NCBI GenBank assembly: GCA_029261065.1
Contig: JAJDCB010000009.1
Span: 33,625-97,624, forward strand
Origin: Candidatus Omnitrophota bacterium
GTDB lineage: Bacteria; Omnitrophota; Gorgyraeia; Zapsychrales; Zapsychraceae
Direction of reading: 5' to 3'
Length of the DNA: 64,000 nt
The notes under the pieces are model-generated. The model had not been told where the DNA came from, made no database searches, and was given only the letters and a program-made list of their open reading frames with translations. Numbering within the stretch: position 1 is the first letter of the stretch; each line of letters begins with the position of its first letter. Shown here one piece after another: positions 36,809 to 64,000 of this stretch. A program made the position numbers and the translations under genes.

Positions 36809-36811
36809 AAA

Positions 36812-37804: not shown

Positions 37805-38361
37805 ACAACCCGTGTCTCCTCAAGTAATGCTTTGGCTAATTCAAAACTCTTCTCAACCTCTTCTCGTCCCGGTTCATGTTTAGCAAATTTAACAAGATCA
37901 CATGACGTTAAAAAGTCCTTTAGAACATTTTTTTGTTTTTCATTTAACTTATCAAGCGCCTGTAAATCAGCTAAAAATTCCTCCGTTGTCATATCTGGGG
38001 CATTAATTGTAAACTGCTCCTCAAAATAGTAACGAATAATACGTGATAATTTTAAATAAAATTCTTCATAACGTTTATTATTTAGAAGATCCTCTTCCTG
38101 CAAAGACTTTAATCTTAACATGGCGCACTCATAAGGTGTTTTGATCTTACCCACCGTTATTTTTCTACGTTCTAACCTTTTTGAGATAACATATAAAACA
38201 CCCAAAATTAACCCACCTAAGAGAAGGAATAACATGATCCAAAAAATAACCGGGTTCATAGGTAAAGCGAAAGGCGGACTAACATCTCGTAATTCCTCTG
38301 CATTAACAGAATGTATATTTATCGTTAGAAAAAATGTTATTAAGAAAAAGGCTTTTTTCAT
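37801..38361 (-). CDS. DUF4381-like small membrane protein of Bat/MoxR operons
   Basis: 186 aa. It has a signal peptide, one TM (VIFWIMLFLLLGGLILGVLYVI) and a C-terminal helical region (...DLVKFAKHEPG...). Its position between DUF58 and BatA is the usual place of DUF4381 genes. Confidence 0.55.
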   Translation of the reverse strand: MKKAFFLITFFLTINIHSVNAEELRDVSPPFALPMNPVIFWIMLFLLLGGLILGVLYVISKRLERRKITVGKIKTPYECAMLRLKSLQEEDLLNNKRYEEFYLKLSRIIRYYFEEQFTINAPDMTTEEFLADLQALDKLNEKQKNVLKDFLTSCDLVKFAKHEPGREEVEKSFELAKALLEETRVV

Positions 38362-39276: not shown

Positions 39277-39361
39277 GATTAGAATATAGGATATGGTGGT
39301 TAGCTTTCAAGGATTTATATAGAAAAGGAATAACGCCCAGAAACCCAACCCTCAATCTTTA

Positions 39362-40357
39362 TTAAGGCACTTCTATTTCATGTAAAATCGTATCCACAAT
39401 GTCTTCAGGAGTTTTCTCTTCAGCCTCGGCCTCATAGCTGATGATGACACGATGTCGAAGCACATCCATGCCGATAGACTTAACATCTTGTGGAGTCACA
39501 TAACCACGCCCCTGCAGGAAAGCGTATGCTTTGGAGGCAATAGCTAAATTAATGGTAGCTCGAGGAGAAGCCCCATATTGAATAAGCCCATTGAGTGATG
39601 ATAAATTATAAGAGCCTGGATCACGTGTGGCATCTACGATATTAACAATGTACTTCTCAATCTTCTCATCCATATAAATTTCATCAACAACTGCTCGCGC
39701 TCGCATTAATTCTTCAGGTTTAATAATCGGTTGAACATCAACCTTGCTTGAAGTAAAAGACATTCGTTGTAATATTTTTAACTCCTCATCCTTAGTAGGA
39801 TAACCGACTTTAACTTTTAACATAAACCGATCCACTTGAGCTTCGGGCAAAGGATACGTTCCTTCCTGTTCAATAGGATTCTGTGTTGCTAATACAAGAA
39901 ACGGCTCATCCAATTGAAGGGTGTCAGATCCGATTGTCACCTGCCTCTCTTGCATCGCTTCAAGTAACGCACTTTGCACCTTGGCAGGAGCACGATTAAT
40001 TTCATCAGCAAGAATGATATTGGCAAAAATCGGTCCTTTTTTAACAATAAAGTCGCCTGACTTCTGATCAAAAATTAATGTTCCCGTTAAATCGGCAGGT
40101 AACATATCAGGTGTAAATTGTAGACGTTGAAATTTTGTTTGAATGGTTTGGGAAAGTGTTTTAACAGCTGTGGTTTTAGCTAATCCTGGGACGCCTTCGA
40201 GTAAAATATGACCGTTAGCCAGCATCCCGACAAGAAGTCGTTCAAAAAGATACTTTTGACCGACCATGACTTTTTGAGTTTCAAGAAGCAACCCTTCAAT
40301 AAAGGCGCTTTCTTTTTTGACTTTCTCATTTATAACTGAGATATCTTGTGTTGACAT
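39362..40357 (-). CDS. moxR: MoxR-family AAA+ ATPase
   Basis: 331 aa. It has Walker A LLEGVPGLAKTT and Walker B ILADEINRA, and is the first gene of the Bat-type operon. Confidence 0.85.
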   Translation of the reverse strand: MSTQDISVINEKVKKESAFIEGLLLETQKVMVGQKYLFERLLVGMLANGHILLEGVPGLAKTTAVKTLSQTIQTKFQRLQFTPDMLPADLTGTLIFDQKSGDFIVKKGPIFANIILADEINRAPAKVQSALLEAMQERQVTIGSDTLQLDEPFLVLATQNPIEQEGTYPLPEAQVDRFMLKVKVGYPTKDEELKILQRMSFTSSKVDVQPIIKPEELMRARAVVDEIYMDEKIEKYIVNIVDATRDPGSYNLSSLNGLIQYGASPRATINLAIASKAYAFLQGRGYVTPQDVKSIGMDVLRHRVIISYEAEAEEKTPEDIVDTILHEIEVP

Positions 40358-40439: not shown

Positions 40440-43400
40440 TTAACCCAGATGTACATCAATACGTTTTAATTTACCATCACGAATGTCTCCAGAATACGGT
40501 GATGGAATAAATGCGCCTTTAAGGAGAACAGGTTTCTTTTTTTGAGAATACGTTAGCTCTATGTCCTGAACGCTAACCGCAGATTTCCCATAAGTATTCT
40601 TCTTTTTAGGATTGTGATAAACAACAAGAGTTGATCCTAAAAATACAAAAGCATAACAATTCTGATCAATTTTCTCTTTAAAGCACTCCCTTTTAATATC
40701 ATAAAATTCAACTGTTGATTTCTGTGTTGTAAATAGCCAACTCGGTAAAGCCGGCACAAAAGACAGTACAAGCTCTTGATTCGCATTAAGGGAAAATGGA
40801 TTTAAACCCACATTCATCAGCAACCACATGTGCAAAAATTCTGCCGTACTCCCCGATAACCGCGCAACAAACCCTTGTCCATGTAACGAGGCATCTTCGT
40901 GGGCTGAACTAACAATAAAAGAAGAATTCTCCAAAGTACTTCTTCCATAAACAGCTGGATCTAAGGATGAGACTAACACATGTTTAAAGTTATCAAAAAA
41001 CTCCTCGTACAACCCTTGTCTCAGAACTTCCAACATAAACTTATATTCCATGTGAAGCCAGACCGATTCGTTCTCCAACCAACCTGAAGGAAAAATGCGG
41101 CAACGGCCGATTTCATCAGTCTCATTCGCTAAATTCTCGTTAACTTTATACATTTTAAGTTTTTTATCAAACAAGGGGCTACGACGCACTTGACTATATA
41201 ACTCTTTTGCCTCCTTAACATCCTTCGCCACTCTTAAAGCATGCACATAACCTTCTAAAAATAACGGCAGATTATGACGTTTAAATTCCAGTGGACGGAC
41301 AAAGGGCTGCTCTTCATTCTGACTTTTATCTAATTCTTGATATTTCGGAACTTGATGATAAAAGTACGTTGATAAAAATCCTTCTTTCGTAAAACCAGCA
41401 TCAATAGAGGTATTAATTTTCTCGATAACACCAATTAAAAACGTCTTAATCGCAGCAACCGTCATTTGCTCCTCGACTCCATCAACACCTAAACGAATCC
41501 GATTACGATAATGCTCTTTAATATCATTCGATTTTTGCCAGTAAGCTTTAGGATCCTGTTTTAAAGAAAGTAATGGACTTAAACCTGTGACAAACGTATA
41601 CAGCTCTTCAAACAAAGAAAACTGATGATTATCGGCCAATCCAAGTTGTTTTAAAGACTCTAATAAAAACTGACTATACCTTTTGATTTCAATTGTCTCA
41701 GAAATTGAAGATCCTAGAAGGCCAGGCAAGCCATTTAAAGAATCATACCAATTGGGTTTATCCGCCTCCATCTCCACCCCAACACCGCTTGGATCGAGAG
41801 ATGCGACTTTATTAGCAATAAGACATAACAACTTACAAACTAAATGCGTGTAATAAACCCCACCTTCTCCATTTTTAACCTTGAGACGATTTCCCTTTAA
41901 TTTCGCACCAATGGCCATCGTTCCGTCTTTAACAGATTCATATTGCCTCACTCCACGCTCAGTTAAAATATAACGCTGATCGCGAGGTAACACATAATGA
42001 TCGTTATGATAAAAATAAAACTCTTCCTTCTCCATTAATAAATGCCGTAACTTCTCGGGATAAAGAGCTAGATAACTTTCTAATAAATCCAGATTATACG
42101 TCCAATGATCAGACCAAAATCCCTCCCCATGATTTGAGAGTTCTTGTTTCTTAGAACCTTGTAAAACACGTGATAAAAATTCTTGCTGTGTTACTTTTAG
42201 GGAAATCGATTCCTGCGCAATAAAGGTGAGCAGCTCTCCGGGAAGAAACGCTTCTTCTAAGATATTTGTTAACTTCTTATGATCTGATTTTTCAACACAT
42301 TGATTGAGCACGGTCTTTACGTATTTTTGATCTTGAATCTTAAAAGAAACCCCTTGAACAACTAATGGATTATAACCATCAGCTTGAGACAAATTTAAAA
42401 AGGTCATAATATGACTATCACCAACCAATGGGTTAAACCAAGCATCGTTGCGTCGATTTTGATTCACATCACGATAATTTCCATTACCTTGGGAGTAATA
42501 ACTGGCCGCGACATAAAAATAATTATAATCGCGTTCCAAATCCCCATGCTTTCGACTATAGACATTAAAGGCCACATCGCCCTGTTTCGTTCCTATCGTG
42601 ACAGGAAGCCCACCTCTTAAAATATTATCCAAAAATGTCGATGAACAATATTTATCAAAGGTATCCAAAGAACTCTTTGTTAAGCAATAATTTTTAACCT
42701 CATCAATAATCCCTTTGTTGACCTTACTTTTTCTGTCTATATAATTCTTTTGAGTCGCCTGCTTAACCATATCATTGAGGGCATCAACGTCATGAGCGTA
42801 ACCTAACATCGATACGACTTCCTTCGTTGCTTTAGGCTTTAATGTTGCCTTAAAATAGGACATCGCAGAAGGGGAACGATTGCTCGTTTGTTGCACTTTT
42901 GGAAGAGAAAATGATTTTTCTATAAACTGTTGAGGACAGACAAAGTCTTGAGCTGCACCAAAAACGCAAGCATTCTCAACTATTGGTTCGAGCAGTTTAT
43001 TTTTTCCGCCTTGAGGATCAAAACTAAAATAAAAATTTCCCTCCTCAATAGGTGTCACCTCGGGCTTATCCGAGACCTCTACATTGAGTTGGTAATAAGC
43101 TGCCTTTTTCTTTAAATTGCGCACTTTAACCCACGCCTCAACGGTGCGTGAAATATTCTTATTTAAAGCATCCGTTAATCCGTAAGGTACAATGACAGGC
43201 AACCCATCTATCACTTCAATATCTTTGGCTTGTTTGCCCACGTTTATAATACTAACTCGTCGAATAAGTGCTGCGAAAGGTTCTTCAGCCAACGTAAAAT
43301 AATTAACGCGAACAATTATTCCCAGATCTAAATTTTCTTCCTCAAGCGTTAAATCATGCGCACTCATCGAAAGCTTTACTTTCTTTTTATAGTCTGTTCC

Positions 43401-43712
43401 CTCTAGATGATTTTGGAAAGGTTCATAGTAACGTGTTTTTGGCCCTATCTTTACTTTGATAAACGTGCGAAATCCTTGAAGAGCGGTTTGCCGATAAGCC
43501 TTATTCGCCGGCTGAAACTCCATGATGGCTTTATCCTTGGCCTCAATACCAAAGCTTGTCACACACTGACCTCGATTAACATAGAATACCCACATCGGAA
43601 TACCCCACAGGCCAGCTATCCCTGGAAAAAAATTGCTAAATAGTTTAGCTTGATTATAGTTCTCTATATTAAAACACCCGTTTTCATCTAAAGTATATTT
43701 TGGATTATTCAT
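40440..43712 (-). CDS. Large cytoplasmic protein, probable (alpha/alpha)6-barrel glycoside phosphorylase/hydrolase-like enzyme (GH94/GH65-like; tentative)
   Basis: 1090 aa with no signal peptide. The N-terminal region resembles the N-domains of GH94 phosphorylases (short conserved aromatic-rich segment PMWVFYVNRGQ). The mid-region motif GNGNYRDVNQNRRND resembles the catalytic RD..QD region of GH94-type enzymes. This assignment is made by eye only. Confidence 0.35.
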   Translation of the reverse strand: MNNPKYTLDENGCFNIENYNQAKLFSNFFPGIAGLWGIPMWVFYVNRGQCVTSFGIEAKDKAIMEFQPANKAYRQTALQGFRTFIKVKIGPKTRYYEPFQNHLEGTDYKKKVKLSMSAHDLTLEEENLDLGIIVRVNYFTLAEEPFAALIRRVSIINVGKQAKDIEVIDGLPVIVPYGLTDALNKNISRTVEAWVKVRNLKKKAAYYQLNVEVSDKPEVTPIEEGNFYFSFDPQGGKNKLLEPIVENACVFGAAQDFVCPQQFIEKSFSLPKVQQTSNRSPSAMSYFKATLKPKATKEVVSMLGYAHDVDALNDMVKQATQKNYIDRKSKVNKGIIDEVKNYCLTKSSLDTFDKYCSSTFLDNILRGGLPVTIGTKQGDVAFNVYSRKHGDLERDYNYFYVAASYYSQGNGNYRDVNQNRRNDAWFNPLVGDSHIMTFLNLSQADGYNPLVVQGVSFKIQDQKYVKTVLNQCVEKSDHKKLTNILEEAFLPGELLTFIAQESISLKVTQQEFLSRVLQGSKKQELSNHGEGFWSDHWTYNLDLLESYLALYPEKLRHLLMEKEEFYFYHNDHYVLPRDQRYILTERGVRQYESVKDGTMAIGAKLKGNRLKVKNGEGGVYYTHLVCKLLCLIANKVASLDPSGVGVEMEADKPNWYDSLNGLPGLLGSSISETIEIKRYSQFLLESLKQLGLADNHQFSLFEELYTFVTGLSPLLSLKQDPKAYWQKSNDIKEHYRNRIRLGVDGVEEQMTVAAIKTFLIGVIEKINTSIDAGFTKEGFLSTYFYHQVPKYQELDKSQNEEQPFVRPLEFKRHNLPLFLEGYVHALRVAKDVKEAKELYSQVRRSPLFDKKLKMYKVNENLANETDEIGRCRIFPSGWLENESVWLHMEYKFMLEVLRQGLYEEFFDNFKHVLVSSLDPAVYGRSTLENSSFIVSSAHEDASLHGQGFVARLSGSTAEFLHMWLLMNVGLNPFSLNANQELVLSFVPALPSWLFTTQKSTVEFYDIKRECFKEKIDQNCYAFVFLGSTLVVYHNPKKKNTYGKSAVSVQDIELTYSQKKKPVLLKGAFIPSPYSGDIRDGKLKRIDVHLG

Positions 43713-50501: not shown

Positions 50502-52475
50502 CTAGTTAAAAAAAGGAATGGATTCTAAAATGTCATCGATAATGGCTTCTTCTGGCGAGACAGATTCTTGCTGCATGGGTTCATCCCCTACTACAGCCCC
50601 ACCTTCTGTCGTTACAGCACCAGACTCATCATCGCGATTATATGTTTTTTGCCTTTGCAATTCCGGATTTTGTTCCCGAATATCAAGGGCCTTAAAGATA
50701 ACATCTTTTAATTCTTGTTTAGCCCTATCAAAAATCATAGATTTGGCAACACCATCAATTTCTGGATAAACAATTAGTTTATCATAAGGACCATTGTATT
50801 GAGAAAATTGAATTTCAACTTGCGACTCATCATTTAAAAAGGAAGAAAACTCTGAAACGCCATTAACGATAGAGTTAGAAAGCTTCTCTTCTAAATAAAG
50901 AGTCGGTTTAAATTGAATATTCCCCTTATAATCTAGCTCCCCATCAGCTTTGAGAACAAACTCTTCTCCATCTATGTCTAAATTATAAGAAATTCTACTA
51001 TTTTTCGTTTGTAGCTTTGTATTAATTAAAGATATATTAGTATCCGGACTATTGAGTTTCTCTTTTAATGTGCTTGGTAAAGAACGATTTAGTTCCTCAA
51101 TGATGTCATATCCAGCTGCTTTTGCGATAATTGTTGGCGCTGATAACACTTTATCAAAAACCATTCTTAAGATATTAATATTGATCAATTTTGCATCCAC
51201 CACTTGCAGGCTTCCTGTTCCTACTAAAGATGATTTTAACATCTCTAACGTTTGCGCTTGCGTTTTAATTTCTAGATTCGAGCTTAAACTTCCCTCTAAA
51301 TTTAACGGCTCATCTAAGCCTTCTATTTCAATTAATTTCTCTTGCGAAAACAACTCTTGTAACAATAGATCCTCAGCATTAATATCTAATCGCAACTTCC
51401 TCTCTTTCATATAATCATCCACACGTCCCTTAATTTGAATCTTACCTTGAGCCAAATACATAAAAAACTCATTAATGATCACATCTTGTTCGCTGATTTC
51501 CAACTTGATATCAATATTTTCAATCGGATATTTTAAATCAGCAGACCTTATCTTCCCATTATTAAGCCCTCCATCAGCTGTTAGAACCAGCAAACCTTCC
51601 GGCCCTACAATTACCTGATGAATATCTAAACTAACAATTCCTTCAAGTTTATCCGTTAATCCCACTGGTCTTAAGTCAGGCACACTATTTAATAGACGAG
51701 ATAAAGAAAGATCTGATAAATTTGATTTTAACTTCACATCATCCACACGCAATTGACGATTTTTAGCATCGATCTGGGCTGTGCCATCAAAATCAATATT
51801 TGGTTTATCGCTAAACATCGACCATGCCATTTTAAAAGGAAACGGCTTATCTAAAGATAAATTTGAAATTTCAATTTGTAAATCAGCAATAGGAACATTA
51901 ACAGGAGGATCTTTTCGTTTATCTAGAAAGGTAACTAATCCATTTGAGATACGAATGGATTTAGCCATGATAGGTGGCATTTTAAAATTCTTTGACTTAT
52001 CTTTTTTTGATGAACCTGACGTTTCCTTCTCCTCACTTTCTGTAGAAGAAACAGAATCATTTACAGTTTTAGCAAAGGCTTCAAAATTTAATGTTCCGTC
52101 TTTATCAATAATAAGATGAATCTCTGGCGTATCAATCTCGATATGATTGATAACAATGGCTTGTGTGGTTATAAAGGCAAGAACATCCACATGTAGACGT
52201 AGGGAATCTGCTATCAGCATAGGAGATTGAGAAAATTGAGGATCATCGTTTAAACGAAGACTATCCACTCTAACAGACGCCCCCTTAAAAAAAGAAAAAT
52301 CAAGAGCTAAAGTATCAGCATACACCTCACGCTGAAGTTGTTTACTAACGGTCTTAATTATCTGAGGTTTGTAGTTATTAAGCTTAACCGTTTTTAAAGC
52401 AATAATCGTTGCACATACAACAATGAGCAGTAAGATAACAATCGTTTTTAGTAAAATTTTGATAAACTTTTTCAT
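50502..52475 (-). CDS. AsmA-family protein (TamB/YhdP-like envelope lipid-transfer family)
   Basis: 657 aa. It has an N-terminal TM anchor ([21 protein letters not shown]) followed by a long beta-rich periplasmic region typical of AsmA-like proteins. The C-terminus is acidic. Confidence 0.6.
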
Positions 52476-54739
52476 AATGAGAGCTTTAGATTGCTTAATA
52501 TATCTTTTAATGCGTTAACATCTGTCACAGGACGTTTGCAGACATGATTCTCACATACATAAACCGTCGTCTTATCATCCTTTGGTTTTTGATTTTCAAT
52601 AAAGGGCGCAATTTCAACGATCCCCTTTGAATCCTTTTTTGTTGAATTTAATACCACAACTTTATTGGGCAAAAACAAATTAAAAATTGGATTAACGAAA
52701 TTATGAATATCCTCATTTTTAGTAGATGCTATAACTATTTCTTGTGAAGGTCCTAATGAATAATCGAAAGCAATAAGCATTTGAGCATATGCGCTCGGCC
52801 TTTGCAAGAGTTCATCAGAAAATGCTTGAATGAGTTTATCTGTATAGCCTTCCCATTTTTTATCCAAAGTTATATGGGATAATCGCACCATAGTTAACGC
52901 GGCCATAGAATTGCCTGAGGGTATGGCTCCATCATGAATTTCTTTTTGCCGGAAAATAAGCTCTTTAGCATCAGAAGCCGTAAAATAAAAACCATGCCTT
53001 TCCTCATCCCAAAAATATTGAATCATCTGATCACTTAAAGAAATTGAGTGCTTTAAATATTTTAAATCAAATGTAGCTTCATACAAATCTATCAAAGCAT
53101 TTGTCAAAAAAGCATAGTCTTCAATAGTTGCTGCGATACCTGCATCACCATCACGGTAGCGATGAAGAAGCCGCCCCCTTTTATCAATCATTGTTGCTAA
53201 AAGAAAATCAGCACTTTGAATGGCAGCATCTTTATATTTTTCATCATCTAGTACGCGGGAGGCAAATGCTAAAGAAGAAATCAATAAGGCATTCCAATCT
53301 GTTAAAATCTTATCATCCAAGTGAGGAACTGGCCTTGTTTTTCTTTGAACAAACAACTTATCTTTAGATTCTTTTAAAATTTCATTTACTTCTTTTTCTG
53401 AAATTTTAAATTGATCTGCTGTTTGTTTCACTGTGCGTTCCACAAACACAATATTCTTCCCAATAAATTCCTGGTGGGGATCATTTTTAGCATTCCCAGA
53501 GTCACGTATACCAAAATAATATTTAAAAACTTGTGCGGCTCTCTTCTCTAATATAGAGTCTATTTCTTCAGAACGCCAAACGTAAAAAGCCCCTTCCTTT
53601 TTTTCATGAATTTGATTAGGATCTACAGAAACTTGTGAATATTCATCTGGATCAAGACTATCGGCATCCTCAGCAGAATAAAAACCACCTTGATCATCTT
53701 TCATATCGCGCAAACAATAATCTAAAACTTCACGCGCCACTTGAGCGAAAAAAGGTTCTTTTGTAATTTGATACGCTTCTAAATAGGTCCTTGCTAAAAT
53801 AGCTTGATCATAAAGCATTTTTTCAAAATGTGGCACCTGCCAATACTGATCCGTTGAATAACGATGAAAGCCTCCCCCTAAATGATCATACATTCCTCCA
53901 TTAGCCATTTGAACTAACGTTTGTTTAACCATATCCAAAACACGATTATCTTGCGTTCTTAACCAATATCTTAATAGATAAGATAGATTGTGGCTCGATG
54001 GAAATTTAGGGCTTGAACCAAAGCCGCCATATTGATCATCGTATATACGATCATATTGTTGAAAAGCACTTTTTAGTAACTCTTTTGTTAACACCTTTGT
54101 TCCTCCGCCCTGAGGAATATTCTCCTTAATCATCTCCGTTAATGTATTACTTGATGTTATCAGTTGTTCTCGATTAGTACTCCACGATCGATGAATCGAT
54201 TCCATCACCTCCGTCAATCCCGAAGAACCCCATTTTGCTTTAGGTGGAAAATAGGTGCCGCCAAAAAACGGTTTCTTATCAGGTGTTAAGATAACCGTAA
54301 GCGGCCATCCCCCCCGTCCTGTCATGGCCGTTACAGCACTCATATAAATATTATCAATGTCCGGACGTTCTTCACGATCCACTTTTATAGGAACAAAGTA
54401 TTCATTAATTTTTTGGGCAATCGCTTCATCCTCAAAAGATTCATGCGCCATGACGTGACACCAATGACAGGTGGAATAACCAATGGATAAAAATATAGGT
54501 TTGTCTTCCTTTTTTGCTTTCTCAAACGCCTCCTCCCCCCAGGGATACCAATCAACGGGGTTAGATGCATGTTGCAAGAGATACGGACTTTTTTCGTGGA
54601 TCAAACGGTTTTGATGTTGTTTTGTTTTATTCATAGCAAGGCCTCTCGTTCTTGCAGATGCAAGATTCATAAATACAAATATCGGCAATACAACTAAAGA
54701 GAAAATTACGAAAATTTTAAAGTTCTTTTTCGAAATCAT
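52472..54739 (-). CDS. Thioredoxin-domain protein of the DUF255/YyaL (SPATA20-like) family with six-hairpin glycosidase-like domain
   Basis: 755 aa with an N-terminal signal/TM. It reads [52 protein letters not shown], the hallmark DUF255 thioredoxin-like motif with CxxC. Confidence 0.8.
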
Positions 54740-54820: not shown

Positions 54821-57800
54821 TTAATAATGTTGTTCAACACCATTTAATGCATCAGCAATCATATCGGCACGGGATTTATTATCAGGCAACGATAGTTCTT
54901 GCCGTTGAGGTATTGATTTAAAACTTGAAGGTTGTTTATATGTCCTTTTAGGGGCAACACGACCTTTCTTCTTACGAAATTTAGATTCTCTGATAAGTGC
55001 TTTTTCACATTTACTAATAAATTTATCTATCTTTTTATAATTTGGTTTAATATCACCTACCTCAAGAAAAACATTTTTAGCCTGATAAAACTCCTTATGC
55101 TCATACAGACTGATGCCCTTGGCATATAATATTTCTAAATTTACTTCCAACTCCTTGCGTATCTTTTCACGTTCTTGACGAAGTCTTTCTTGTCGTTCAC
55201 GTACCAAACGATCTAACTCCATTTGTTTTTCTTTCTCCAAAACAGAACGTCTCTTTTTCTCTAATTTAAGCTGTTCTGCCCGAGAAATTCGCAATCGTTC
55301 TTCTTTACGTTTCTCAAATTTTTCTGATACAGGAGCATCCAACTTCTCTTTAAACTTCTCAACCCTTTTAAGGTTAATCTTTTCTCTTTTATCACCATTT
55401 AATTTAGCAATACTTTTAATTGTCTTTACTTTTTCTTTAGCCAATTGCGCCTCCTCTCTTCTAATCTGAGCTTCCAAGTCTTCTGTATCAGCAGCCTTAA
55501 ATAAATCAATAGGCGAGGTGCCACTTTGGTTCATTTTTGATTCTCGTATCAGCATTATTTTCTTTCGTTTCGCCTCATCCTTAGCAATTTCTTTTTGAAA
55601 TTTTCTACGATCCTTACTCATTCGTTTACGCATACGTTCTAAATACTTTTCAGAGAAATCGCCTTTGGCCAACAACGACTCATACTTATTAAACTTGGCT
55701 TGAGCCAACTCTTTATTATCAGAACGATATAATACCATCCCTTCTTTATAGACTTGAGAAATTTCCCTTTTTAATCGATTACGAATTTCTTTTTCCTTAA
55801 TCTTAGCTATTCGTTTGGCTTCCTTTTCCTTAGACAATCTTTTCTTTTCTGCCTCTTTGTTCTTTAATTCTTCCTCATGCTTCTTCGCCTCTAATTCCAA
55901 CTCCTGCTTTTTCTTCTCAAATTCCAATTTTCTTAACTGTTCAACTCGGGCCAATTCTTCTTCCTTTTCTTTTAATTCCATCTCTTTCTTTAACAAACGT
56001 CGATTAGTCTCTTCTTCCTTTTTCTTAAGCTTTGCTTCACGTTTATCATAAGGATATTTTAATTTTGATTCATTATCCTCTTTTGCACGCCATTGATCAT
56101 TTTCTTTTTTAGCTTTTTCTTCCAATTCTTGGTCATTTTTAACCATTTGTTCTTGCACATCATCCTTTTTTGATTCTTTTTTTAGAGCTTCTCTCTTTAA
56201 CTCTTTTACATTTTCAATGCGTTGCGCCTCAAACGCCTCATCTGCCTTAGCCAACATTCGTTCACTACGAAGAACGTAAGCTTTAGCTGACTTGAATCCT
56301 GGGTGGAGGGCATCTATGGTAGAAAATTTAACCTTCGCCTCTTGATAAAATCCATCTTCAAACAAAGACAAACCTTCTTCATAAAGTTTCTCAACCTCAT
56401 CCTGCCATAATTTTTTGTGTTCATTATCTTTTGAGCGCAGATGTTTATTTATTACCTTCTGATTTTTCTTGTATTCTTTTTGACGTTGCCTTTCTAATCG
56501 GTTAACTTTATTGGACGTTGCCCTACGTTTGACTTCTGCCTTTTCACCATCTATATCTTGTTTAATGCGTTTTTCATCGTATTTCGAAAGCACTTTATCT
56601 TCATCTGAAACTTTTTCCTTTTCCTGAGCATGTTTATCTTCCTGATTAGCTTTAACTGCTAAAACACCGCCTGCTTTGACCGCTTCACTCTTCATACGGG
56701 CAGCCTCTTTTTCTAATCTTAAAGCTTCCTTTTCTAAATTTTTAACTCTTTCCTCTTCCTTTTTACGTGCATTTTGTTCAGCTAATTGAAACTCACGCTT
56801 TTTCTTAAGATCTTCCATCTTCATACGGGCAGCCTCTTCTTCTAATCTCAAAGCTTCCTTTTCTAAATTTTCAACTCTTTCTTCTTCCTTTTTACGCGCA
56901 TTTAATTCAGCTAATTGAAACTCACGCTTTTTCTTAAGATCTTCCTTTTTTCGCATTTTTTCTTCTTCTACGTTTTCTTTTTCTTCTATTTTAATTTCTT
57001 TTCTTAAATCTTTCTTTTGTTGGGCCTTTCTCCATTTTGCACGCCGTTTTCTTTCACGCTTAACTTTGGCAATCGTCTCACGTTCTCGACGAAGCTCATC
57101 TTTAAATTCTTGATTACGTTTTCCACTTAATTCACCTAAATGTTCCTCTTTCGCTTTTAATTCGGCCACCCTCTTATCTTGTTTTTTATGCCACTCATCC
57201 TCATCAAACTTTTCATCACCTTGTTCTTCTGTTTTATGAAGCAATGAAGCATCAACATCTTTTAACTCCAAAGGCTCCTTTGCTTTGGCAGCCGAATTTA
57301 CAATTTTTCTTTCTTTCGTTTCAAGTTGTTTCGTGATGCGACCTAAGTACTTTTCTGTAGAACGATAATCTTCCTTCATAGCATTAATTTCCGTAAACTT
57401 ATCACGAGCCAAACCATATTCACCTTGACGATAAAATTCTTGAGCTTGCTTATAAAGCATTTTTAACTCATCTTTTTTAGAGACAATTTTTTCATCATTT
57501 TTCTTCGCAGAAGATCTCTTAACCTTAACGGCCTTTCTTTTCTTTTTCTTAACAATCTTTGCCTTGACCTTAGGTGAAGAAGAAACAGGCGTAATACGCT
57601 GAGATCCGTTAATAGCGCTATCCTCCAAACGTGACAAATAACTTAAGGCATCCTTGTATCCAGGATAAAGAGCCTCAAGTTGAATAAATTTTATTTTAGC
57701 CTGAGAATATTGTTTTTGTTTATAAAGATTTACGGCCTCTTTATAGCGCGTGTCTGCATCTTTTGTTAATTGCTCCTTACGATTTTTAACGGCACGATCA

Positions 57801-59428
57801 ATCGCGTTATCTTGATAATCGCTCTTTACGACCCTTATAGCTGGCTTATCTTTTGCTAAATATTTTTCAATTTTACTTAAAAAACTATCTGTCTTCTTAT
57901 AGTCTGGAAATATACGTTTAAGCTCCTGAAATTTTACTTTTGCCTGCTTGTATTCTTTCTTCTTATATTTACTCACTGCAGCTTTATAGACAACACCCGC
58001 TTGCTTTTCTTTATGCGCTTTAAGTTTATCGGCCACATCTTTGGCCTGATCACTATCAGTAGCATCTTGATCGACATCTTGAGCTACCTCTTTTTTTAAA
58101 CGCTTAATTTCGCTTTTTTTACTTTTTTTACTTTTTTTGCTTTTTTTGCTTTTTTTGCTTTTTTTGATTTTAGCTTGCTTCAACTGCCTTTCTTTTTTCA
58201 ACTCTTGAGCAAAACTTTTCAAATCATCGCTTTCTCTTACCCCCAAAATCTTATTTAATTTTGCAAAATATTTTGCTGTATTTTTATAATCCGGATAAAA
58301 GTCTTCCAATTCATCAAACCGCTTCTTAGCCTTTTCGTAATCTTTACGCTTAAATAATTTTATCGCAGCTTTATAAAGAAATTCAGCCTCATCTTCTGCC
58401 CGCATTTTTTCCCGCATAGCTTTCTGCTCTTTATATTTTTTATTTAATGCCTTTTTTTCTTTACTAGATAACTTAACGATTTCATTGCCATCTTCATCAA
58501 AACGATCTGCGTGTTTTTCTCGATATTTTCTAAAATTCTCAATATCTCGATCAACACGTGATAAATATCTAATAGTCGACTTATAATTTGGTAATATCCA
58601 CTCAACTTCCTGAAACTTTTCTTTGGCCAATTCATATTGGCGTGTCTTATGTAGAGAGACGGCTTGACGATAGGTTTCCTCTGCTTGATCTTCTAGCTTT
58701 TGTTCTCTATCCTTTTCTCGCTTTAATATTTCAGCTTTCCACTTTTGTTTATCACTACGCCGCTCCACAGCTTCTTGCTGTAATTTTTTCTCAATCAAGA
58801 CTTCTTGTTCTTTATCAATTTCACGCCCAATTAACATCATATAACTACGCGTTGCTTTATGATCAGGAAACATGTCTTCTACATTTTCAAACTCTTTTTT
58901 GGCTGCCATCCATTTTTTCTGTTTATATAGTGACACTGCCGACTGATAAACCTCTTCAACCTCTTTTGAGCTATAACCTCGCTCAACTTCTAAACGTTTA
59001 ATTTTTCGTTTTTCTTCTTTATTAAAAGCAATTTCTAGTTTTTTCGCTTTACGCGCGCTTTCATTTAAATAAGCCTTCATCTCAGGGTGCTCTGTAATTT
59101 TAATCGCATCTTCCCATAATTTTTGGGCCTCTTCAAACTTACCTTCTTCGTATAAACGCATTGCTTTTTCGTAATACTCCCGTGCCTTTTCTTCACGCTG
59201 TTGATTACGTCTTAAACGTGCTTGATTCTTCAACTTATCATTTACAGACTCAATTTTCTTCTTAGATTTTTTAATAAGGGCTTTAAGATTAAGAACATAA
59301 CCCTCGCTTTCTTTTTGTTCTTTAAAGGGGATGTCCTCCTCGGCGGAAGATAGAGTTGGTGGTGCGCTTAAAAAAAGGCTGGCGCTTAGAAGGCTAATAG
59401 TGAGGTGCTGTTTAAATAGCTTTTGCAT
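54821..59428 (-). CDS. Secreted 1535-aa Lys/Glu-rich coiled-coil protein with ten dispersed BamD/YbgF-like TPR hairpin units
   Basis: It has a signal peptide (LTISLLSASLFLSAPPTLSSAEE). A ~42-aa unit of the form Yx(A)vxLYkxKxYxxAKxKFxEvxxxxPdYKxTxxYLxRIxxxL occurs ten times (e.g. YKEAVNLYKQKQYSQAKIKFIQLEALYPGYKDALSYLSRLE; YKAAVSKYKKKEYKQAKVKFQELKRIFPDYKKTDSFLSKIEKYL). The units are separated by highly charged K/E/R-rich predicted coiled coil. The gene also contains a 129-nt tandem duplication and a (KKS)6 tract. Confidence 0.7.
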   Translation of the reverse strand: MQKLFKQHLTISLLSASLFLSAPPTLSSAEEDIPFKEQKESEGYVLNLKALIKKSKKKIESVNDKLKNQARLRRNQQREEKAREYYEKAMRLYEEGKFEEAQKLWEDAIKITEHPEMKAYLNESARKAKKLEIAFNKEEKRKIKRLEVERGYSSKEVEEVYQSAVSLYKQKKWMAAKKEFENVEDMFPDHKATRSYMMLIGREIDKEQEVLIEKKLQQEAVERRSDKQKWKAEILKREKDREQKLEDQAEETYRQAVSLHKTRQYELAKEKFQEVEWILPNYKSTIRYLSRVDRDIENFRKYREKHADRFDEDGNEIVKLSSKEKKALNKKYKEQKAMREKMRAEDEAEFLYKAAIKLFKRKDYEKAKKRFDELEDFYPDYKNTAKYFAKLNKILGVRESDDLKSFAQELKKERQLKQAKIKKSKKSKKSKKSKKSKKSEIKRLKKEVAQDVDQDATDSDQAKDVADKLKAHKEKQAGVVYKAAVSKYKKKEYKQAKVKFQELKRIFPDYKKTDSFLSKIEKYLAKDKPAIRVVKSDYQDNAIDRAVKNRKEQLTKDADTRYKEAVNLYKQKQYSQAKIKFIQLEALYPGYKDALSYLSRLEDSAINGSQRITPVSSSPKVKAKIVKKKKRKAVKVKRSSAKKNDEKIVSKKDELKMLYKQAQEFYRQGEYGLARDKFTEINAMKEDYRSTEKYLGRITKQLETKERKIVNSAAKAKEPLELKDVDASLLHKTEEQGDEKFDEDEWHKKQDKRVAELKAKEEHLGELSGKRNQEFKDELRRERETIAKVKRERKRRAKWRKAQQKKDLRKEIKIEEKENVEEEKMRKKEDLKKKREFQLAELNARKKEEERVENLEKEALRLEEEAARMKMEDLKKKREFQLAEQNARKKEEERVKNLEKEALRLEKEAARMKSEAVKAGGVLAVKANQEDKHAQEKEKVSDEDKVLSKYDEKRIKQDIDGEKAEVKRRATSNKVNRLERQRQKEYKKNQKVINKHLRSKDNEHKKLWQDEVEKLYEEGLSLFEDGFYQEAKVKFSTIDALHPGFKSAKAYVLRSERMLAKADEAFEAQRIENVKELKREALKKESKKDDVQEQMVKNDQELEEKAKKENDQWRAKEDNESKLKYPYDKREAKLKKKEEETNRRLLKKEMELKEKEEELARVEQLRKLEFEKKKQELELEAKKHEEELKNKEAEKKRLSKEKEAKRIAKIKEKEIRNRLKREISQVYKEGMVLYRSDNKELAQAKFNKYESLLAKGDFSEKYLERMRKRMSKDRRKFQKEIAKDEAKRKKIMLIRESKMNQSGTSPIDLFKAADTEDLEAQIRREEAQLAKEKVKTIKSIAKLNGDKREKINLKRVEKFKEKLDAPVSEKFEKRKEERLRISRAEQLKLEKKRRSVLEKEKQMELDRLVRERQERLRQEREKIRKELEVNLEILYAKGISLYEHKEFYQAKNVFLEVGDIKPNYKKIDKFISKCEKALIRESKFRKKKGRVAPKRTYKQPSSFKSIPQRQELSLPDNKSRADMIADALNGVEQHY
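56691..56948. repeat. Tandem duplication, 2 x 129 nt (~95% identical), inside the 1535-aa gene
   Basis: Copy 1 at ~56691-56819 and copy 2 at ~56820-56948 both begin TTCATACGGGCAGCCTCTT. They encode two near-identical 43-aa units (EDLKKKREFQLAE(L/Q)NARKKEEERV(E/K)NLEKEALRLE(E/K)EAARMK). Confidence 0.9.
58113..58166. repeat. Simple sequence repeat: six tandem 9-nt units CTTTTTTT(A/G), each with a T7 run, encoding (KKS)6 on the minus strand
   Basis: The sequence 58113-58166 reads cttttttta cttttttta ctttttttg ctttttttg ctttttttg ctttttttg. It lies inside the 1535-aa gene (KIKKSKKSKKSKKSKKSKKSE). Confidence 0.9.
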
Positions 59429-59456
59429 AAATTAATAATTCGTAGTAAACATGTCG

Positions 59457-59474
59457 TCCCCGCGAAAGCGGGGA
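59457..59474 (-). terminator. GC-rich stem-loop (6-7 bp stem, GAAA tetraloop) in the AT-rich spacer between the two giant genes
   Basis: The hairpin is tCCCCGCgaaaGCGGGGa. A second imperfect GC hairpin lies at ~59516-59532 (TTCCGCttccGCGGGAA). On the minus-strand transcript no strong U-tract follows the stem, so it is a weak intrinsic-terminator candidate or an RNA stability/processing element. Confidence 0.4.
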
Positions 59475-59579
59475 TCCATTTATAATAATATATATAGATA
59501 TAGTTATTATGAGGTTTCCGCTTCCGCGGGAATAACACTTTTCTATTAGTACACTTTTAATATATCTATATTAGTGACC

Positions 59580-62500
59580 TCATTCTACCATAGGCCCTTG
59601 AACCTCTTCCAGAATTTTCTCCAGTATTTTCTTTGCTTTATCATACTGTCCATTCTTATAATATTGGTCAGCTAGAGTGCTCATTTCTTTAAGTTTTTCT
59701 TCCTTATCAATTTGACCCTGAATATATTGGGCGGCCTCAGCAAACATCATTTGACCTGCCATAATAATATCGCGATAGATCTGTTGAGATTCTTCTAAAC
59801 GGCCGTCCTTGTGGGCTTTTTGAGCTAAGACAAAATAACTATTTAATTCATAGAGGATCGGACTATCATCTCGTGATAACTCATCATCAACCATAATCCA
59901 AGCCCAATAGGCGATTTTTTCTTGTAACCAGCGCTGTTTATTGCGATCTTTTTCTTCCTGCGTTTGATCATAAAGACTTCCGGTAATGCGCATAAACGGC
60001 CCTTCAGAGGCATAATCTAGATGAGTGAGATCATCATCAAATTCTGTAAAATTGTAACCAATTCCAATTTGAGCAAACTCACCTACACGTCTGGCTCCCT
60101 CAATGAGGAATCCACGTTTTTGGTCTCGGGCTTCTTCAACATCCAAAATACGGAATTCACTTCCTATCGTCCAATCGCTATCAATTTTATAATTCAATCG
60201 ATGAATCATTAACCATGTATGTGTTTTTGTAAAATCAAAGCCTGTGACTTTTTCTTCCCCAATACGATACGCAAACTTTTCTGTAACTTGCCATTTATCT
60301 GTTAAATCATAAATCACATCAACAGCCATAACATGCGCGCTTTCTTCTTCAATATCAGATTTATCCTCCTGACCTTCTGGAGAGCGTTCTTCAAGATAAG
60401 TGTAACGACTTAAGATATTTAAGCGATCATGATAAATAGGACGATAGGCAGCACCAATAATTAACTCTTTATGTTTCGCCTCATAACGGCCTGCTGTTTC
60501 ATTTCGTGTCTTAGAAATTTCTATTTTACTAAAGACGGTAAGTTCAGAAGAAAGCTTGCCTTCGACAGAGCTAAAAACGAGATACTGTCTTTTATTTTCT
60601 TCACCATCATCAAAACGCGCTTCTAATTTTGTTGAACTGCTAAGCGCTTTTCCTGTTTCTTCATCTGTATGAGAATAACCCATTCCTAAACTCACCACAT
60701 CACGATCAGATTCAGAACCATCATGACTTTGAACTTCTCCTCGCTCATAAGAACCTGAAAAAGCCCAACGATCATCAATGTCCCCTGATAACCCATAGAT
60801 GTTTGAACTCGTAATATCTTTATCACCTTCTGAATACGCGCGTGTTAGAGACCCTTCTAACTTCTTACCGTTCTTCTCACGAATAAGACTGTATGTCGAA
60901 TCGGTTGTATTGGCCTCAGGTGTTTGTCCAAAGGCACGATTGGTGGCCACACGTAAGTCTTGTGTTAATCTTGAACTTGAACCAAAACTCATAGCACTTG
61001 ATCGACCCTCCGTTTTTGAATCGGTTAGATCAAACTGGCTGGTTGTTGTAGTTTTGTCATTAATTTGAGAGTCGCCACCAAAACTTAACGTTGTTGAACT
61101 ATCATCAACAGACTTAGCCATCTCAATATTGGTATTAACAGAGGTCTTCTCATCAACTTGTTTGGATGCTCCTACTCCAAGAGTTGTGGTCCTTTGACCT
61201 GCTTTATCTGTAGTAACTGAAGTTCGCACCTCAACCTCATCACTAATTTTAGCTTCAGCTCCCATGGTAGATGTTTTCTCTACATTGCCAGCTTTATCCG
61301 TAGTAATGGCATAACCACCCGTTAAGCTTAACCGTTCTGAGACATCAGCTGTTACATCTAGCTCTGTTGCTGTTCCTGATGTTGCGATAACCTCTTTGGC
61401 TTCGATGGTTATACTTTCTGTTGGTTTTACTATGGCACCAAGTGTTGTTTGGTTATTCTTCGCACCATGAATAGTCATTTGCTGCTCTATGGAAAGTTCT
61501 AACTTATCGCTTACGGTATAATCTCCACGGATAGCCAAAGAATCTTCAATTTCTTCAGACTGACTGTCAAACTTATCAATACGCGATTTTGTCACTTGAC
61601 GTTGGTATTCCCCTGTTAATTTTAAGTCGCGAATCTCATGGACAACCTGAACGATTGAAGTCGATGTCTTAAACGCTCCTAATTGAAGTTGTGTTTGCGC
61701 ATTGCCATCGTGAATCAGGCTTTGAATATCATGACGGGCACTTAACCGTGTCTTTTCAGCTAAATCATAAACGACCTCAAATCCTGAAAGCTCTTTGCCT
61801 TGCTGAGATGTCGTAGCTGCTGATGAGAAGTCATTTCCTATCCATTTATAATAGCTGCTCACACCAAGTCTGTTAAATAATCTAGCATCCCCCTTAATAC
61901 CATAGGCCGATCCAGATGAAATTTCGCTGGTTTTTAGTTCTGCAAAGGATAAACCACCATCCGTTGATATAAACGTGCCTTGCGATTCTGAAACCGTTTC
62001 GGCGTATTCAGCCGTAACAGAGGCATCTTCACTTAGTCGTACAGTCACATCCGTACCCCGCAATTCGTAATCTGTTTGATCTTGGGTTTCACTCACATAA
62101 GTGACTCCAGCAATCACGTTATCTGAAAGTGCCTGTCGGACACGTGTACCGGCGGTGGATTCATCAAGTTTTTCATTCACTTCATACTGGTAATCTGTAA
62201 TCACATAAACAAGATTTCCGTCTAATAAGTCATTAGAGATGATGGAATAAGTATCCACAAGGATTGGTACAGGTCTCCAGAACAAGATACGACCACTGTT
62301 ATAATCCATTTCATAGTCAGCCCCTTCTTTCATTTCTCGAGAAGAAACAACTAAACCTGTAATCTTATCTCTTACTTCAATCAAAACTTTATCAGAACCT
62401 TCAATGACATCCTTATGTTTTAAGAAGTAGAGCGAACCACCCGTTGCTAAAAACTCATTATGCGCACTCTTTTGTTGTGTGCGGGCATGGAAGGCAACAA

Positions 62501-64000
62501 CTTTTGTACGCGAATCTCCAAATTTTGTTGCACTTAACGATTCAAAATCAACCATACCACCAAATAAACTTCGTGAGTATTGAGAGAATTCTGTTTCATC
62601 AAATCCAATGCTGTAGTTACCCCATTTCGCTTCAGATTTATCCCACTCAACGAGGACAAAGAGATTGCCTTGGGTATTAGTCGCATCATAATCGATATTT
62701 CCATCATCGCCGTATACAGGATAATACTCATCAGGATCTAGATTTCTAAAAAGTTCTTTACGTTTACGATTGCTATCAAAACTGGATGTAATCAAATATT
62801 TACCAAGAACCTTACCCTTTAAGTAATACGCTAGCTGACCTTCAGACCAGAAGCCATTTGTGAATTTCTCATCTTGTTCAACAACTTCGATGTTACCTCG
62901 CGTAAAGGTATAACCCATCTTTGCATCACCCATCGCGACAAAGAAGACACGATCTTCGCCAATTTTGAGTGGTCGGTTAAATGTTGAATATTTTCTTGTA
63001 TCTGAAGTCAAACTGGAAACATCCGTTAATGCCGCTAATCCACCCTCATCATAAACAAGACCTTCTTCATCCCCGTCTGGAATCTGCTGGACTTGTAAGA
63101 TGTAATCGCCTTTTGGCAAGATGACATCGACTTTATTTAAATCATCTGTTGCTTGGCGAAGATCGCCATCAATTAATTCGCGAGCTGTTAAAGCCTTAGC
63201 TTTCGTGACGGGGACATCAACAAATAACTGCCCATCTTTTATGACCCGAATACTCTTAAGGTTCGTTTGATTGCGATCAATAAATACGGTTTCCCCTTCA
63301 ACAAAAATGTTTTGAAGACGCACACTATTTACCGTCGATTGCCCCTTGGCCCATTGTGGATATTTTTCTCGTCTTGCATCTGTTGCTTCTATAAACTCCT
63401 CGTATTCTTCCTTTTCTTCAATCTCTCTAAAGTTTAAGAGTTGTGGTTTAGTTTCATCCCATTTACCCTTTGCATCTTCAACATATAGTAAGTATTGATA
63501 ATTGCGATCCGTTCGAACATACTCACCCGTCGCATCACGGCCATCCCATAGGATTGGATCATGAATATTTAAACGATTACCATCAAACTTACGGATGAGC
63601 CTATTAGTATCGCGATCAACGATTTCGAGTTTCCAATATTCTATAAAGGAAGCATAGTTGGTAAAAACCTTAAACTCGAGGGCTTCAACGGGGACATCTT
63701 CGTAAAGCACGAGTTCTTCATTAAAGAGACTTGTGTGCAATCGTGGTTTAGGACGTTTATCTTCTTGGACAACACTGACATCTTCTGTAAAGAACTGTAA
63801 GTTTTTATCTTGAGATATATCGTAATCTACATTGACACCAAAGTTCACCTTAGCCGTTAACCCTTTGGTGATATCAACGATGACAACTTTATTGGTGGTT
63901 AAATAACTTCCTTCGGGCAATGTTCGTTCATCTAATCTAAAGAGATGTCGTCCTGGTGTTAAGGCTGGAACACTAAAGCGTCCTTTCTGGTCTGTTGTAA
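59580..64000 (-). CDS. Giant beta-rich surface/outer-membrane-associated protein (>1470 aa; N-terminus beyond window end) with carboxypeptidase-regulatory-like and FlgD-Ig-like domains, Thr/Ser-rich segments and C-terminal TPR-like helical tail
   Basis: The ORF track starts it at a TTG (63918-63920), but the frame remains open to nt 64000 (...TTDQKGRFSVPALTPGRHLFRLDERT-L-PEGSYLTTNK...), so the true start is off-window. GRFSVP...PGRH resembles a CarboxypepD_reg domain. ILWDGRDATGEYVRTDRNYQY resembles an FlgD Ig-like domain. A long alternating/amphipathic T/S/G-rich beta region ends ...GEFAQIGIGYNFTEF.... The C-terminal ~120 aa are TPR-like (YYKNGQYDKAKKILEKIL). Confidence 0.6.
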   Translation of the reverse strand, partial: TTDQKGRFSVPALTPGRHLFRLDERTLPEGSYLTTNKVVIVDITKGLTAKVNFGVNVDYDISQDKNLQFFTEDVSVVQEDKRPKPRLHTSLFNEELVLYEDVPVEALEFKVFTNYASFIEYWKLEIVDRDTNRLIRKFDGNRLNIHDPILWDGRDATGEYVRTDRNYQYLLYVEDAKGKWDETKPQLLNFREIEEKEEYEEFIEATDARREKYPQWAKGQSTVNSVRLQNIFVEGETVFIDRNQTNLKSIRVIKDGQLFVDVPVTKAKALTARELIDGDLRQATDDLNKVDVILPKGDYILQVQQIPDGDEEGLVYDEGGLAALTDVSSLTSDTRKYSTFNRPLKIGEDRVFFVAMGDAKMGYTFTRGNIEVVEQDEKFTNGFWSEGQLAYYLKGKVLGKYLITSSFDSNRKRKELFRNLDPDEYYPVYGDDGNIDYDATNTQGNLFVLVEWDKSEAKWGNYSIGFDETEFSQYSRSLFGGMVDFESLSATKFGDSRTKVVAFHARTQQKSAHNEFLATGGSLYFLKHKDVIEGSDKVLIEVRDKITGLVVSSREMKEGADYEMDYNSGRILFWRPVPILVDTYSIISNDLLDGNLVYVITDYQYEVNEKLDESTAGTRVRQALSDNVIAGVTYVSETQDQTDYELRGTDVTVRLSEDASVTAEYAETVSESQGTFISTDGGLSFAELKTSEISSGSAYGIKGDARLFNRLGVSSYYKWIGNDFSSAATTSQQGKELSGFEVVYDLAEKTRLSARHDIQSLIHDGNAQTQLQLGAFKTSTSIVQVVHEIRDLKLTGEYQRQVTKSRIDKFDSQSEEIEDSLAIRGDYTVSDKLELSIEQQMTIHGAKNNQTTLGAIVKPTESITIEAKEVIATSGTATELDVTADVSERLSLTGGYAITTDKAGNVEKTSTMGAEAKISDEVEVRTSVTTDKAGQRTTTLGVGASKQVDEKTSVNTNIEMAKSVDDSSTTLSFGGDSQINDKTTTTSQFDLTDSKTEGRSSAMSFGSSSRLTQDLRVATNRAFGQTPEANTTDSTYSLIREKNGKKLEGSLTRAYSEGDKDITSSNIYGLSGDIDDRWAFSGSYERGEVQSHDGSESDRDVVSLGMGYSHTDEETGKALSSSTKLEARFDDGEENKRQYLVFSSVEGKLSSELTVFSKIEISKTRNETAGRYEAKHKELIIGAAYRPIYHDRLNILSRYTYLEERSPEGQEDKSDIEEESAHVMAVDVIYDLTDKWQVTEKFAYRIGEEKVTGFDFTKTHTWLMIHRLNYKIDSDWTIGSEFRILDVEEARDQKRGFLIEGARRVGEFAQIGIGYNFTEFDDDLTHLDYASEGPFMRITGSLYDQTQEEKDRNKQRWLQEKIAYWAWIMVDDELSRDDSPILYELNSYFVLAQKAHKDGRLEESQQIYRDIIMAGQMMFAEAAQYIQGQIDKEEKLKEMSTLADQYYKNGQYDKAKKILEKILEEVQGPMVE

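Follow-up and report, generated by a model that had tools for sequence, protein, structure and literature searches.

A candidate periplasmic rod protein with ten single tetratricopeptide repeats, encoded beside a giant predicted outer-membrane barrel in Omnitrophota

CpoB/YbgF is a periplasmic protein of ~260 aa with a Sec signal peptide, helical segments and short bacterial tetratricopeptide repeats (TPRs); it combines an N-terminal trimeric coiled coil with three contiguous TPRs and works together with a complex that spans the envelope, and its gene belongs to the tol-pal operon. BamD/YfiO, a ~245-aa lipoprotein with five contiguous TPRs, acts at the periplasmic face of outer-membrane barrels. 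Here we describe a gene that recalls both, found in a 64,000-nucleotide stretch of a Candidatus Omnitrophota genome (assembly GCA_029261065.1, contig JAJDCB010000009.1, positions 33,625 to 97,624; hereafter the window, to whose own numbering all coordinates refer). Its product, which we call the rod protein, resembles CpoB in its predicted export and helical, TPR-bearing build and BamD in the flavour of its TPRs (BamD is its best sub-threshold match in NCBIfam), but it is 1535 aa long and carries ten dispersed single TPRs in units 63–357 aa apart, with no lipobox and no tol-pal context. The gene stands directly 3′ of a gene for a giant predicted outer-membrane barrel protein, and on balance we think that the rod protein is probably a periplasmic scaffold, spacer or tether partner of that barrel. 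Omnitrophota are uncultivated, mostly ultra-small bacteria, and to our knowledge their envelope is essentially uncharacterised; the rod–barrel gene pair, conserved across the phylum, offers a testable candidate for surface organisation or anchoring in these organisms.

Ten single TPR units in a charged, helical protein

The rod protein is encoded on the minus strand by a single open reading frame (ORF) at 54821..59428, comprising 1535 aa and a stop codon, as given by the ORF list and its translation. It is rich in Lys (19.5%), Glu (14.4%) and Arg (7.8%), with a net charge of +115, and its hydropathy and cleavage-site pattern point to a signal peptide at aa 1–29, MQKLFKQHLTISLLSASLFLSAPPTLSSA (59342..59428, minus strand). 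In this N-terminus, MQKLFKQHLTISLLSASLFLSAPPTLSSA followed by EE, a basic n-region and a hydrophobic core lead to an S-S-A site, and signal peptidase I is predicted to cut before E30. No lipobox Cys was found in the protein: aa 1–40 contain no Cys of any kind, and the sole Cys lies within unit 10 (see below). The export call is based on a hydropathy heuristic and not on a dedicated predictor; the heuristic also assigns an equivalent signal peptide, with an AxA-like site, to ~87 of 90 homologues, and a second hydrophobic segment to none of the 90. By these features the rod protein is predicted to be a Sec-exported, non-lipidated, all-α protein, and it would most likely remain in the periplasm. 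An earlier note on this stretch, made by a model from the letters alone, had placed a single 1535-aa ORF at exactly these coordinates and had called its product Lys/Glu-rich and secreted through an N-terminal signal peptide. All of this holds, with the strand added here and the signal peptide now backed by its conservation among homologues.

A motif search identified exactly ten units of ~45 aa, starting at aa 86, 161, 253, 352, 481, 562, 659, 1016, 1227 and 1435. Scored with a hidden Markov model (HMM) made only from the units of homologues, they reach 30.7–72.3 bits, against a best score of 9.5 bits in 500 composition-preserving shuffles of the rod protein. The repeat is therefore real and far above chance, and the ten-fold recurrence seen in the earlier note is confirmed. 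All units lie on the minus strand: unit 1 at 59048..59185 (aa 82–127; 39.2 bits), unit 2 at 58817..58960 (aa 157–204; 63.1 bits), unit 3 at 58541..58684 (aa 249–296; 72.3 bits), unit 4 at 58247..58387 (aa 348–394; 49.7 bits), which holds the best BamD-like stretch, below threshold, unit 5 at 57863..57994 (aa 479–522; 51.3 bits), unit 6 at 57620..57751 (aa 560–603; 57.0 bits) and unit 7 at 57323..57460 (aa 657–702; 50.6 bits). These are followed by unit 8 at 56255..56395 (aa 1012–1058; 44.3 bits), unit 9 at 55619..55756 (aa 1225–1270; 30.7 bits), the most degenerate and without the P-x-Y-K turn, and unit 10 at 54998..55135 (aa 1432–1477; 41.7 bits), which occupies the place where nearly all family members have their terminal unit. 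From one unit to the next the spacing is 75, 92, 99, 129, 81 and 97 aa, then 357, 211 and 208 aa, rather than the roughly regular 100–170 aa first proposed.

The family-wide consensus of 807 units, AEELYQEAVALYKKKKYEEAKEKFEEVEKILPDYKATRKYLKRIDKDI, covers all 34 positions (1–34) of the Pfam model TPR_2 at 30 bits (cut-off 27) and continues with ~14 residues of capping helix; each unit is therefore one ordinary TPR with its solvating helix. The whole rod protein also passes the TPR_2 model (PF07719), with 43.6 bits against the cut-off of 27. The more specific models stay below their cut-offs: YfiO/BamD scores 18–19 bits on the unit consensus (cut-off 25), and on the whole protein TIGR03302 (BamD) scores 55.1 bits (cut-off 81.4) and TIGR02552 (SycD/LcrH) 41.2 bits (cut-off 104.8), while the NCBIfam matches listed for the rod protein at E ≤ 0.01 include no tol-pal YbgF model. 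The hairpins had been called BamD/YbgF-type; generic TPR_2 describes them best. No model in the Pfam and NCBIfam scans describes the rod protein beyond generic TPR, and a PDB sequence search with the whole protein returned no match, in keeping with the suggestion that the architecture is undescribed; the same search with the unit consensus returned only designed or generic TPRs, at E-values of at least 0.1.

AlphaFold2, run on aa 28–720 with an alignment of 38 sequences, predicts an all-helical chain (mean predicted local distance difference test score (pLDDT) 80.9) in which only short loops and a Lys/Ser/Pro-rich stretch at ~aa 610–642 are of low confidence. At every modelled unit TPR helix A is the end of a helix of 47–79 residues, helix B is a return helix of 14 residues, and the third helix forms the next long helix. 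With continuous long helices between them, the nodes would be unable to stack into a TPR solenoid, and on this model the chain should be extended. With unit starts 75–357 aa apart, the protein also lies outside the structural definition of a TPR domain as at least three adjacent packed repeats, and a Foldseek search of the model against the PDB retrieved only compact TPR proteins, at template-modelling (TM) scores of 0.07–0.10, and no global analogue. The TPR would here be put to an unusual use, as a lone joint between long single helices instead of one repeat within a solenoid.

The three long linkers (aa 703–1434) are 52–59% charged and 20–25% hydrophobic, with 0.27–0.45 opposite-charge pairs (i/i+3 and i/i+4) per residue; the longest of them (~aa 703–1011; 56396..57322, minus strand) is 55% charged and 20% hydrophobic. 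The sequence between units had been taken for coiled coil, for which the heptad signal is weak: occupancy of the a/d positions in the best register is mostly 0.25–0.5, with short peaks of 0.75–0.88 near aa 851–911, and AlphaFold places long solitary helices within the modelled aa 28–720. Charged single helices are the better guess for the linkers. In the longest linker, Tandem Repeats Finder (TRF) detects a recent tandem duplication (56689–56945, minus strand), a 129-bp unit present twice at 94% identity and encoding two 43-aa copies; it also detects 7.1 copies of a 9-bp repeat (58108..58171, minus strand), which encodes (KKS)n between units 4 and 5. Both look like signs of ongoing change in linker length.

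The rod family and the giant barrel protein upstream

As the earlier note had suggested, we searched for homologues and compared their unit numbers. A search of 5.8 billion proteins returned 90 homologues at E ≤ 1e-5, with lengths of 899–2301 aa and 7–21 units per family member. Every named homologue comes from a Candidatus Omnitrophota or Omnitrophica metagenome-assembled genome (MAG), Ca. Zapsychrus included, under database labels such as hypothetical, TPR repeat protein, ‘TolA-binding protein’ and ‘BamD’. A profile search of 1.84 billion cluster representatives (50% identity), made with the shorter alignment A3, gave 246 matches at E ≤ 1e-30 and 941 at E ≤ 1e-10, and a scan of one genome per GTDB species gave 53 loci, nearly all of them in Omnitrophota MAGs; the few with other labels have placeholder names or lie on short contigs. 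The nearest homologues of the rod protein are 41–49% identical to it, so its source lineage is without a close relative in the collections searched. The rod protein itself displays what unites the family, namely the signal peptide, the conserved N-terminal block with spacings of 75, 92 or 99, and 99 aa (here 75, 92 and 99), the terminal unit together with the C-terminal motif (here RADMIADALNGVE), and a gene placed just 3′ of the one for the giant barrel. Neither Pfam nor NCBIfam contains a model for this family, which is unnamed.

Spacings across the family are quantised: among 986 of them, 161 are 99 aa, 120 are 63 aa, 85 are 75 aa and 52 are 92 aa. Of 91 proteins, 83 have a first spacing of 75 aa, 87 a second spacing of 92 or 99 aa, and 66 a third spacing of 99 aa. 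Over the first ~270 aa, linkers included, invariant residues and residue-exact spacing are retained at 30–45% identity; the C-terminal half of family proteins is variable. In the rod protein this conserved N-terminal block (aa 30–296; 58541..59341, minus strand) consists of a long helix and units 1–3 with their linkers, is modelled at a pLDDT of mostly 85–95, and contains the near-invariant motifs RRNQQREE, ITEHPEM, PDHKATRSY and EVEW (alignments A1 and A3). The conserved C-terminal motif (aa 1520–1532; 54833..54871, minus strand) follows a Ser/Pro/Gln-rich linker, and its family pattern, R-x-[DE]-[AVI]-[IV]-x-x-A-L-D-x-[FIV]-E, occurs in 74 of 91 proteins at a background of 0.01 per 30 aa. 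One candidate explanation, that this motif mimics the unit's capping helix in sequence and as a free copy would complete the half unit of the barrel (described below), was rejected in this simple form, as the unit HMM does not match the motif (E > 0.3), although the motif may still dock there. Positive charge as a family trait, for example for polyanion binding, was likewise rejected on a net charge that ranges from −21 to +197.

Among the 53 related loci, from 53 GTDB species, all those for which upstream DNA is available have the giant gene as the next gene 5′ of the rod gene, in the same orientation. The window holds the C-terminal 1472 aa of its product (59580–64000, minus strand), with the stop at 59580 and a frame that is open to 63998 and runs off the window edge; full-length orthologues have ~2300–3300 aa. 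The part before the barrel (62982..64000, minus strand) is an open frame up to the window edge, and the N-terminal half of orthologues contains Ig-like repeats (DUF11/CLIPPER, CarboxypepD_reg, SdrD_B and Big_6, from Pfam on the orthologue L001:991-9876). A predicted outer-membrane β-barrel region of ~1000 aa and ~50 strands follows (59967..62981, minus strand), identified as a strand meander by AlphaFold. The AlphaFold2 model of the last 1143 aa shows this ~50-strand meander and then four helices (pLDDT 68, predicted template-modelling score (pTM) 0.54), and Foldseek matched it only to large outer-membrane barrels, at probability 1.0 (Deinococcus SlpA, SprA, LptD and TonB-dependent receptors). 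A barrel of ~50 strands would be among the largest known to us. Many barrel homologues of other lineages stop exactly at a typical β-signal, ...GYNFTDFNDDLTHLDYTSQGPFIRITGKF, a terminus that marks the barrel end.

Past the last strand the giant protein continues into a C-terminal helical tail (59583..59966, minus strand) of four helices (pLDDT 81–91) with a truncated unit, ...LADQYYKNGQYDKAKKILEKILEEVQGPMVE. The tail extends exactly 159 aa after GYNFT in 29 of the 33 Omnitrophota loci where this anchor was found. Because the unit HMM matches the tail only at positions ~5–27, that is helices A and B, ending 10 aa before the C-terminus, the barrel protein appears to end in half a unit. An extension C-terminal to the last strand of a bacterial outer-membrane barrel is periplasmic, and by this topology so is the tail of the giant protein. 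Barrel homologues also occur outside Omnitrophota, where the C-terminal appendage may be missing or may consist of a full unit, LytR_C or a long K/E tract.

The unit is also found fused to outer-membrane channels. Six members of the barrel family (P0129, P0136, P0162, P0132, P0183 and P0185) extend past the last strand by a helix rich in K, E and R plus a complete unit, with independent E-values for the unit of 7.5e-07 to 2.4e-12; the first three are labelled Ca. Scalindua. A separate rod gene is absent at P0129, the one fusion context checked, and none lies downstream of giant-barrel homologues outside Omnitrophota in either of the two contexts checked. The protein P0277 (L059 6001-13221, GCA_030154545.1) has 2406 aa; between its signal peptide and a C-terminal TolC-like OEP domain it has 27 units, spread at a spacing of ~60 aa across 1900 aa. 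It lies within a resistance-nodulation-division (RND) efflux operon, with genes for membrane-fusion and RND transporter proteins after it. By this domain order and gene context P0277 is a putative outer-membrane efflux factor bearing a 1900-aa periplasmic array of TPR nodes. Furthermore, a symbiont of the PVC group encodes a 2915-aa array of 26 units. Given the barrel and TolC-like fusions, the module of unit and charged helix can be said to recur as a periplasmic appendage of outer-membrane channels.

Possible roles of the rod protein

The pairing of the rod gene with the giant barrel gene and the fusion of its unit to barrels and to a TolC-like channel make a periplasmic scaffold role likelier. 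In such a scaffold the rod, a series of long charged helices broken ten times by a ~45-residue node, would dock on the barrel tail through its nodes or through its conserved N- or C-terminal motifs. Once docked, it could connect barrel complexes below the outer membrane or set the distance between them, or it could join them to deeper envelope layers. The earlier note had spoken of a periplasmic or surface scaffold or a molecular ruler. The periplasmic scaffold gains from the pairing with the barrel gene and from fusions at the periplasmic end, from which we infer the role itself; the ruler idea receives indirect support from the residue-exact, quantised spacings of 99, 63, 75 and 92 aa. If the ideas on binding and spacing are true, the rod would be a new type of periplasmic scaffold; otherwise the rod proteins still make up a family without a name, one for which the domain databases ought to have a model.

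Several observations weigh against a scaffold of this kind. The truncated-unit matches in the barrel tails are individually weak (independent E-values of 1e-2 to 1e-5) and appear convincing only through their identical position in every tail. The model of the rod has a pTM of 0.33, and its strongly basic character is not shared by the family as a whole, in which net charge runs from −21 to +197. Scans of the rod protein for SLH, OmpA, LysM, SPOR or an inner-membrane anchor found none. Correlations with the length of the giant protein are weak, both for rod length (rho 0.40, p 0.05, n = 24, phylogeny ignored) and for unit number (rho 0.38, p 0.07, n = 24, phylogeny ignored). Moreover, as estimated from the helix lengths, an extended rod would be far longer than the periplasm is wide, so that a perpendicular span is unlikely; for this reason a rod positioned under the outer membrane, where it would link several barrels, is favoured.

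A bolder form of the scaffold, which we regard as rather unlikely, would make rod and giant barrel a previously undescribed two-component periplasmic lattice or outer-membrane tether. Here the rod would complete or clamp the half TPR in the barrel tail, and its linkers of 63, 75, 92 and 99 aa (~9–15 nm of helix) would space the giant surface proteins. If so, this phylum of ultra-small bacteria would possess a genuine molecular ruler, or an envelope skeleton, in the periplasm.

The same gene pair could also be explained by export, with the rod as a substrate that passes through the giant barrel in a two-partner-like manner to form a charged surface fibril or coat, its N-terminal ~270 aa serving as targeting domain. 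Strict conservation of the pair would suit this, as would an exceptionally large barrel that Foldseek also matches to the SprA translocon, but Pfam scans of the rod, the upstream fragment and a full-length orthologue found no two-partner secretion (TPS) domain, ShlB or POTRA. The half unit on the periplasmic tail of the barrel suggests docking from the periplasmic side, and units fused past the last strand or before a TolC-like domain are periplasmic by known topology, whereas the family's most conserved part is its N-terminus, as in TpsA substrates, and its C-terminal half is variable in length and has undergone tandem duplication, as in surface proteins. Overall, we give export a small chance.

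To a similarly small degree we can credit the rod with being a dedicated periplasmic chaperone or assembly factor, comparable to BamD or the SycD class, whose nodes would hold the unfolded ~3000-aa protein and pass it to the β-barrel assembly machinery (BAM). The likeness to BamD (55 bits) and SycD/LcrH (41 bits) that would support such a role is sub-threshold, well under the NCBIfam cut-offs of 81.4 and 104.8, and known holdases are compact, without hundreds of residues of charged rod. Conserved adjacency to the gene of one very large client and the weak positive length correlation with the giant gene both agree with a chaperone, yet residue-exact spacing and permanent covalent fusion to barrels argue for a structural rather than a transient role. 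Compared with these, the periplasmic scaffold remains the reading we prefer. The weakest alternative, an ordinary TPR protein with low-complexity spacers, no specific partner and a neighbourhood that reflects only conserved gene order, fits the generic TPR families returned by Pfam and the source labels ‘hypothetical’, ‘TPR repeat protein’ and ‘TolA-binding protein’, but is improbable and already disfavoured by the present evidence, given the invariant residues and exact spacing at 30–45% identity, the adjacency to the giant gene across the phylum, the independent fusions of the unit to outer-membrane proteins and the half unit in the partner's tail.

Genomic surroundings and described systems

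The giant gene and the rod gene are separated by 151 nt (59429..59579, minus strand), a region predicted to form a long GC-clamped hairpin with a minimum free energy of −45.5 kcal/mol (z = −5.2; 0 of 200 shuffles fold as well). Its arms, CCCGCGGAAGCGG and CCGCUUUCGCGGG, flank an AT-rich palindrome, and the region contains the motif CCCGCGAAAGCGGG, which is unique in the window. Rfam has no family for this region, its single sub-threshold miRNA match being noise; the hairpin may act as an attenuator or a processing site, or may be a small palindromic element. Scans for promoters and terminators around the rod gene found sites no commoner than in shuffles.

Directly downstream of the rod gene lies a 755-aa gene (52472–54739, minus strand) that combines a DUF255/DsbH-like thioredoxin with a six-hairpin glycosidase-like region (weak GH88 match). 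Across related loci a DUF255 thioredoxin-like gene and/or an AsmA gene comes next 3′ of the rod gene, DUF255 trailing it in about half of them and AsmA in the others; farther 3′ are genes for PilZ, YgjP, YqeY, a polysaccharide deacetylase and a conserved 1090-aa protein. The last of these (40440–43712, minus strand) has no Pfam match and is found in the same cluster across Omnitrophota, 3′ of the polysaccharide deacetylase. No tol or pal gene lies among the neighbours of the rod gene, which are the giant barrel gene, DUF255, AsmA, a YfhO-like gene and PilZ. Elsewhere in the window (27288–31284) are genes for LpxB (lipid-A-disaccharide synthase) and an MsbA-like ABC exporter, from which it follows that the organism makes lipid A or lipopolysaccharide and has an outer membrane. 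Separately, the window contains a complete Bat-type (Bacteroides aerotolerance-like) operon at 32251–40357 on the minus strand, with a MoxR AAA+ ATPase, a DUF58 protein, a 186-aa ORF, BatA and BatB (vWA), a BatC-like TPR protein, BatD and a BatE-like protein with TPR and SH3.

The literature searched, which covered outer-membrane tethers as well as TPRs, the outer membrane or the periplasm in Omnitrophota, contained nothing about the rod family. Among described systems, OmpM and Deinococcus SlpA offer an analogy of function for the rod–barrel pair, as they join a large barrel to a long periplasmic α-helical stalk. In those proteins, however, stalk and barrel share one polypeptide, the stalk being a trimeric coiled coil that lies N-terminally and ends in an SLH domain, whereas here the rod has its own gene and TPR nodes, the barrel's own tail is C-terminal, and Pfam finds no SLH match in either the rod or the upstream protein. 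Domain II of TolA and ER/K single α-helices (SAHs) are rigid spacers that share with the predicted helices of the rod their length, a Lys/Glu/Ala-rich make-up with few hydrophobic residues and dense i/i+4 salt-bridge patterns; TolA, though, has an inner-membrane transmembrane anchor and no TPR, and SAHs are mostly eukaryotic and cytosolic, while the helices of the rod are punctuated by folded nodes. The unit consensus spans the 34-residue TPR_2 and aligns to the last repeat and capping helix of designed CTPR proteins, but CTPR and natural TPR domains stack at least three adjacent repeats, and those of the rod stand alone between long helices.

The rod protein falls outside BamD, CpoB, SycD and two-partner secretion. 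By analogy, its nearest functional counterparts would be the barrel and stalk of OmpM/SlpA and the charged helix of TolA, although it belongs to neither. Its parts (TPR, charged helices and a barrel partner) are familiar; what is unfamiliar is the use of single TPRs as joints at fixed spacing, together with a barrel partner that carries half a TPR.

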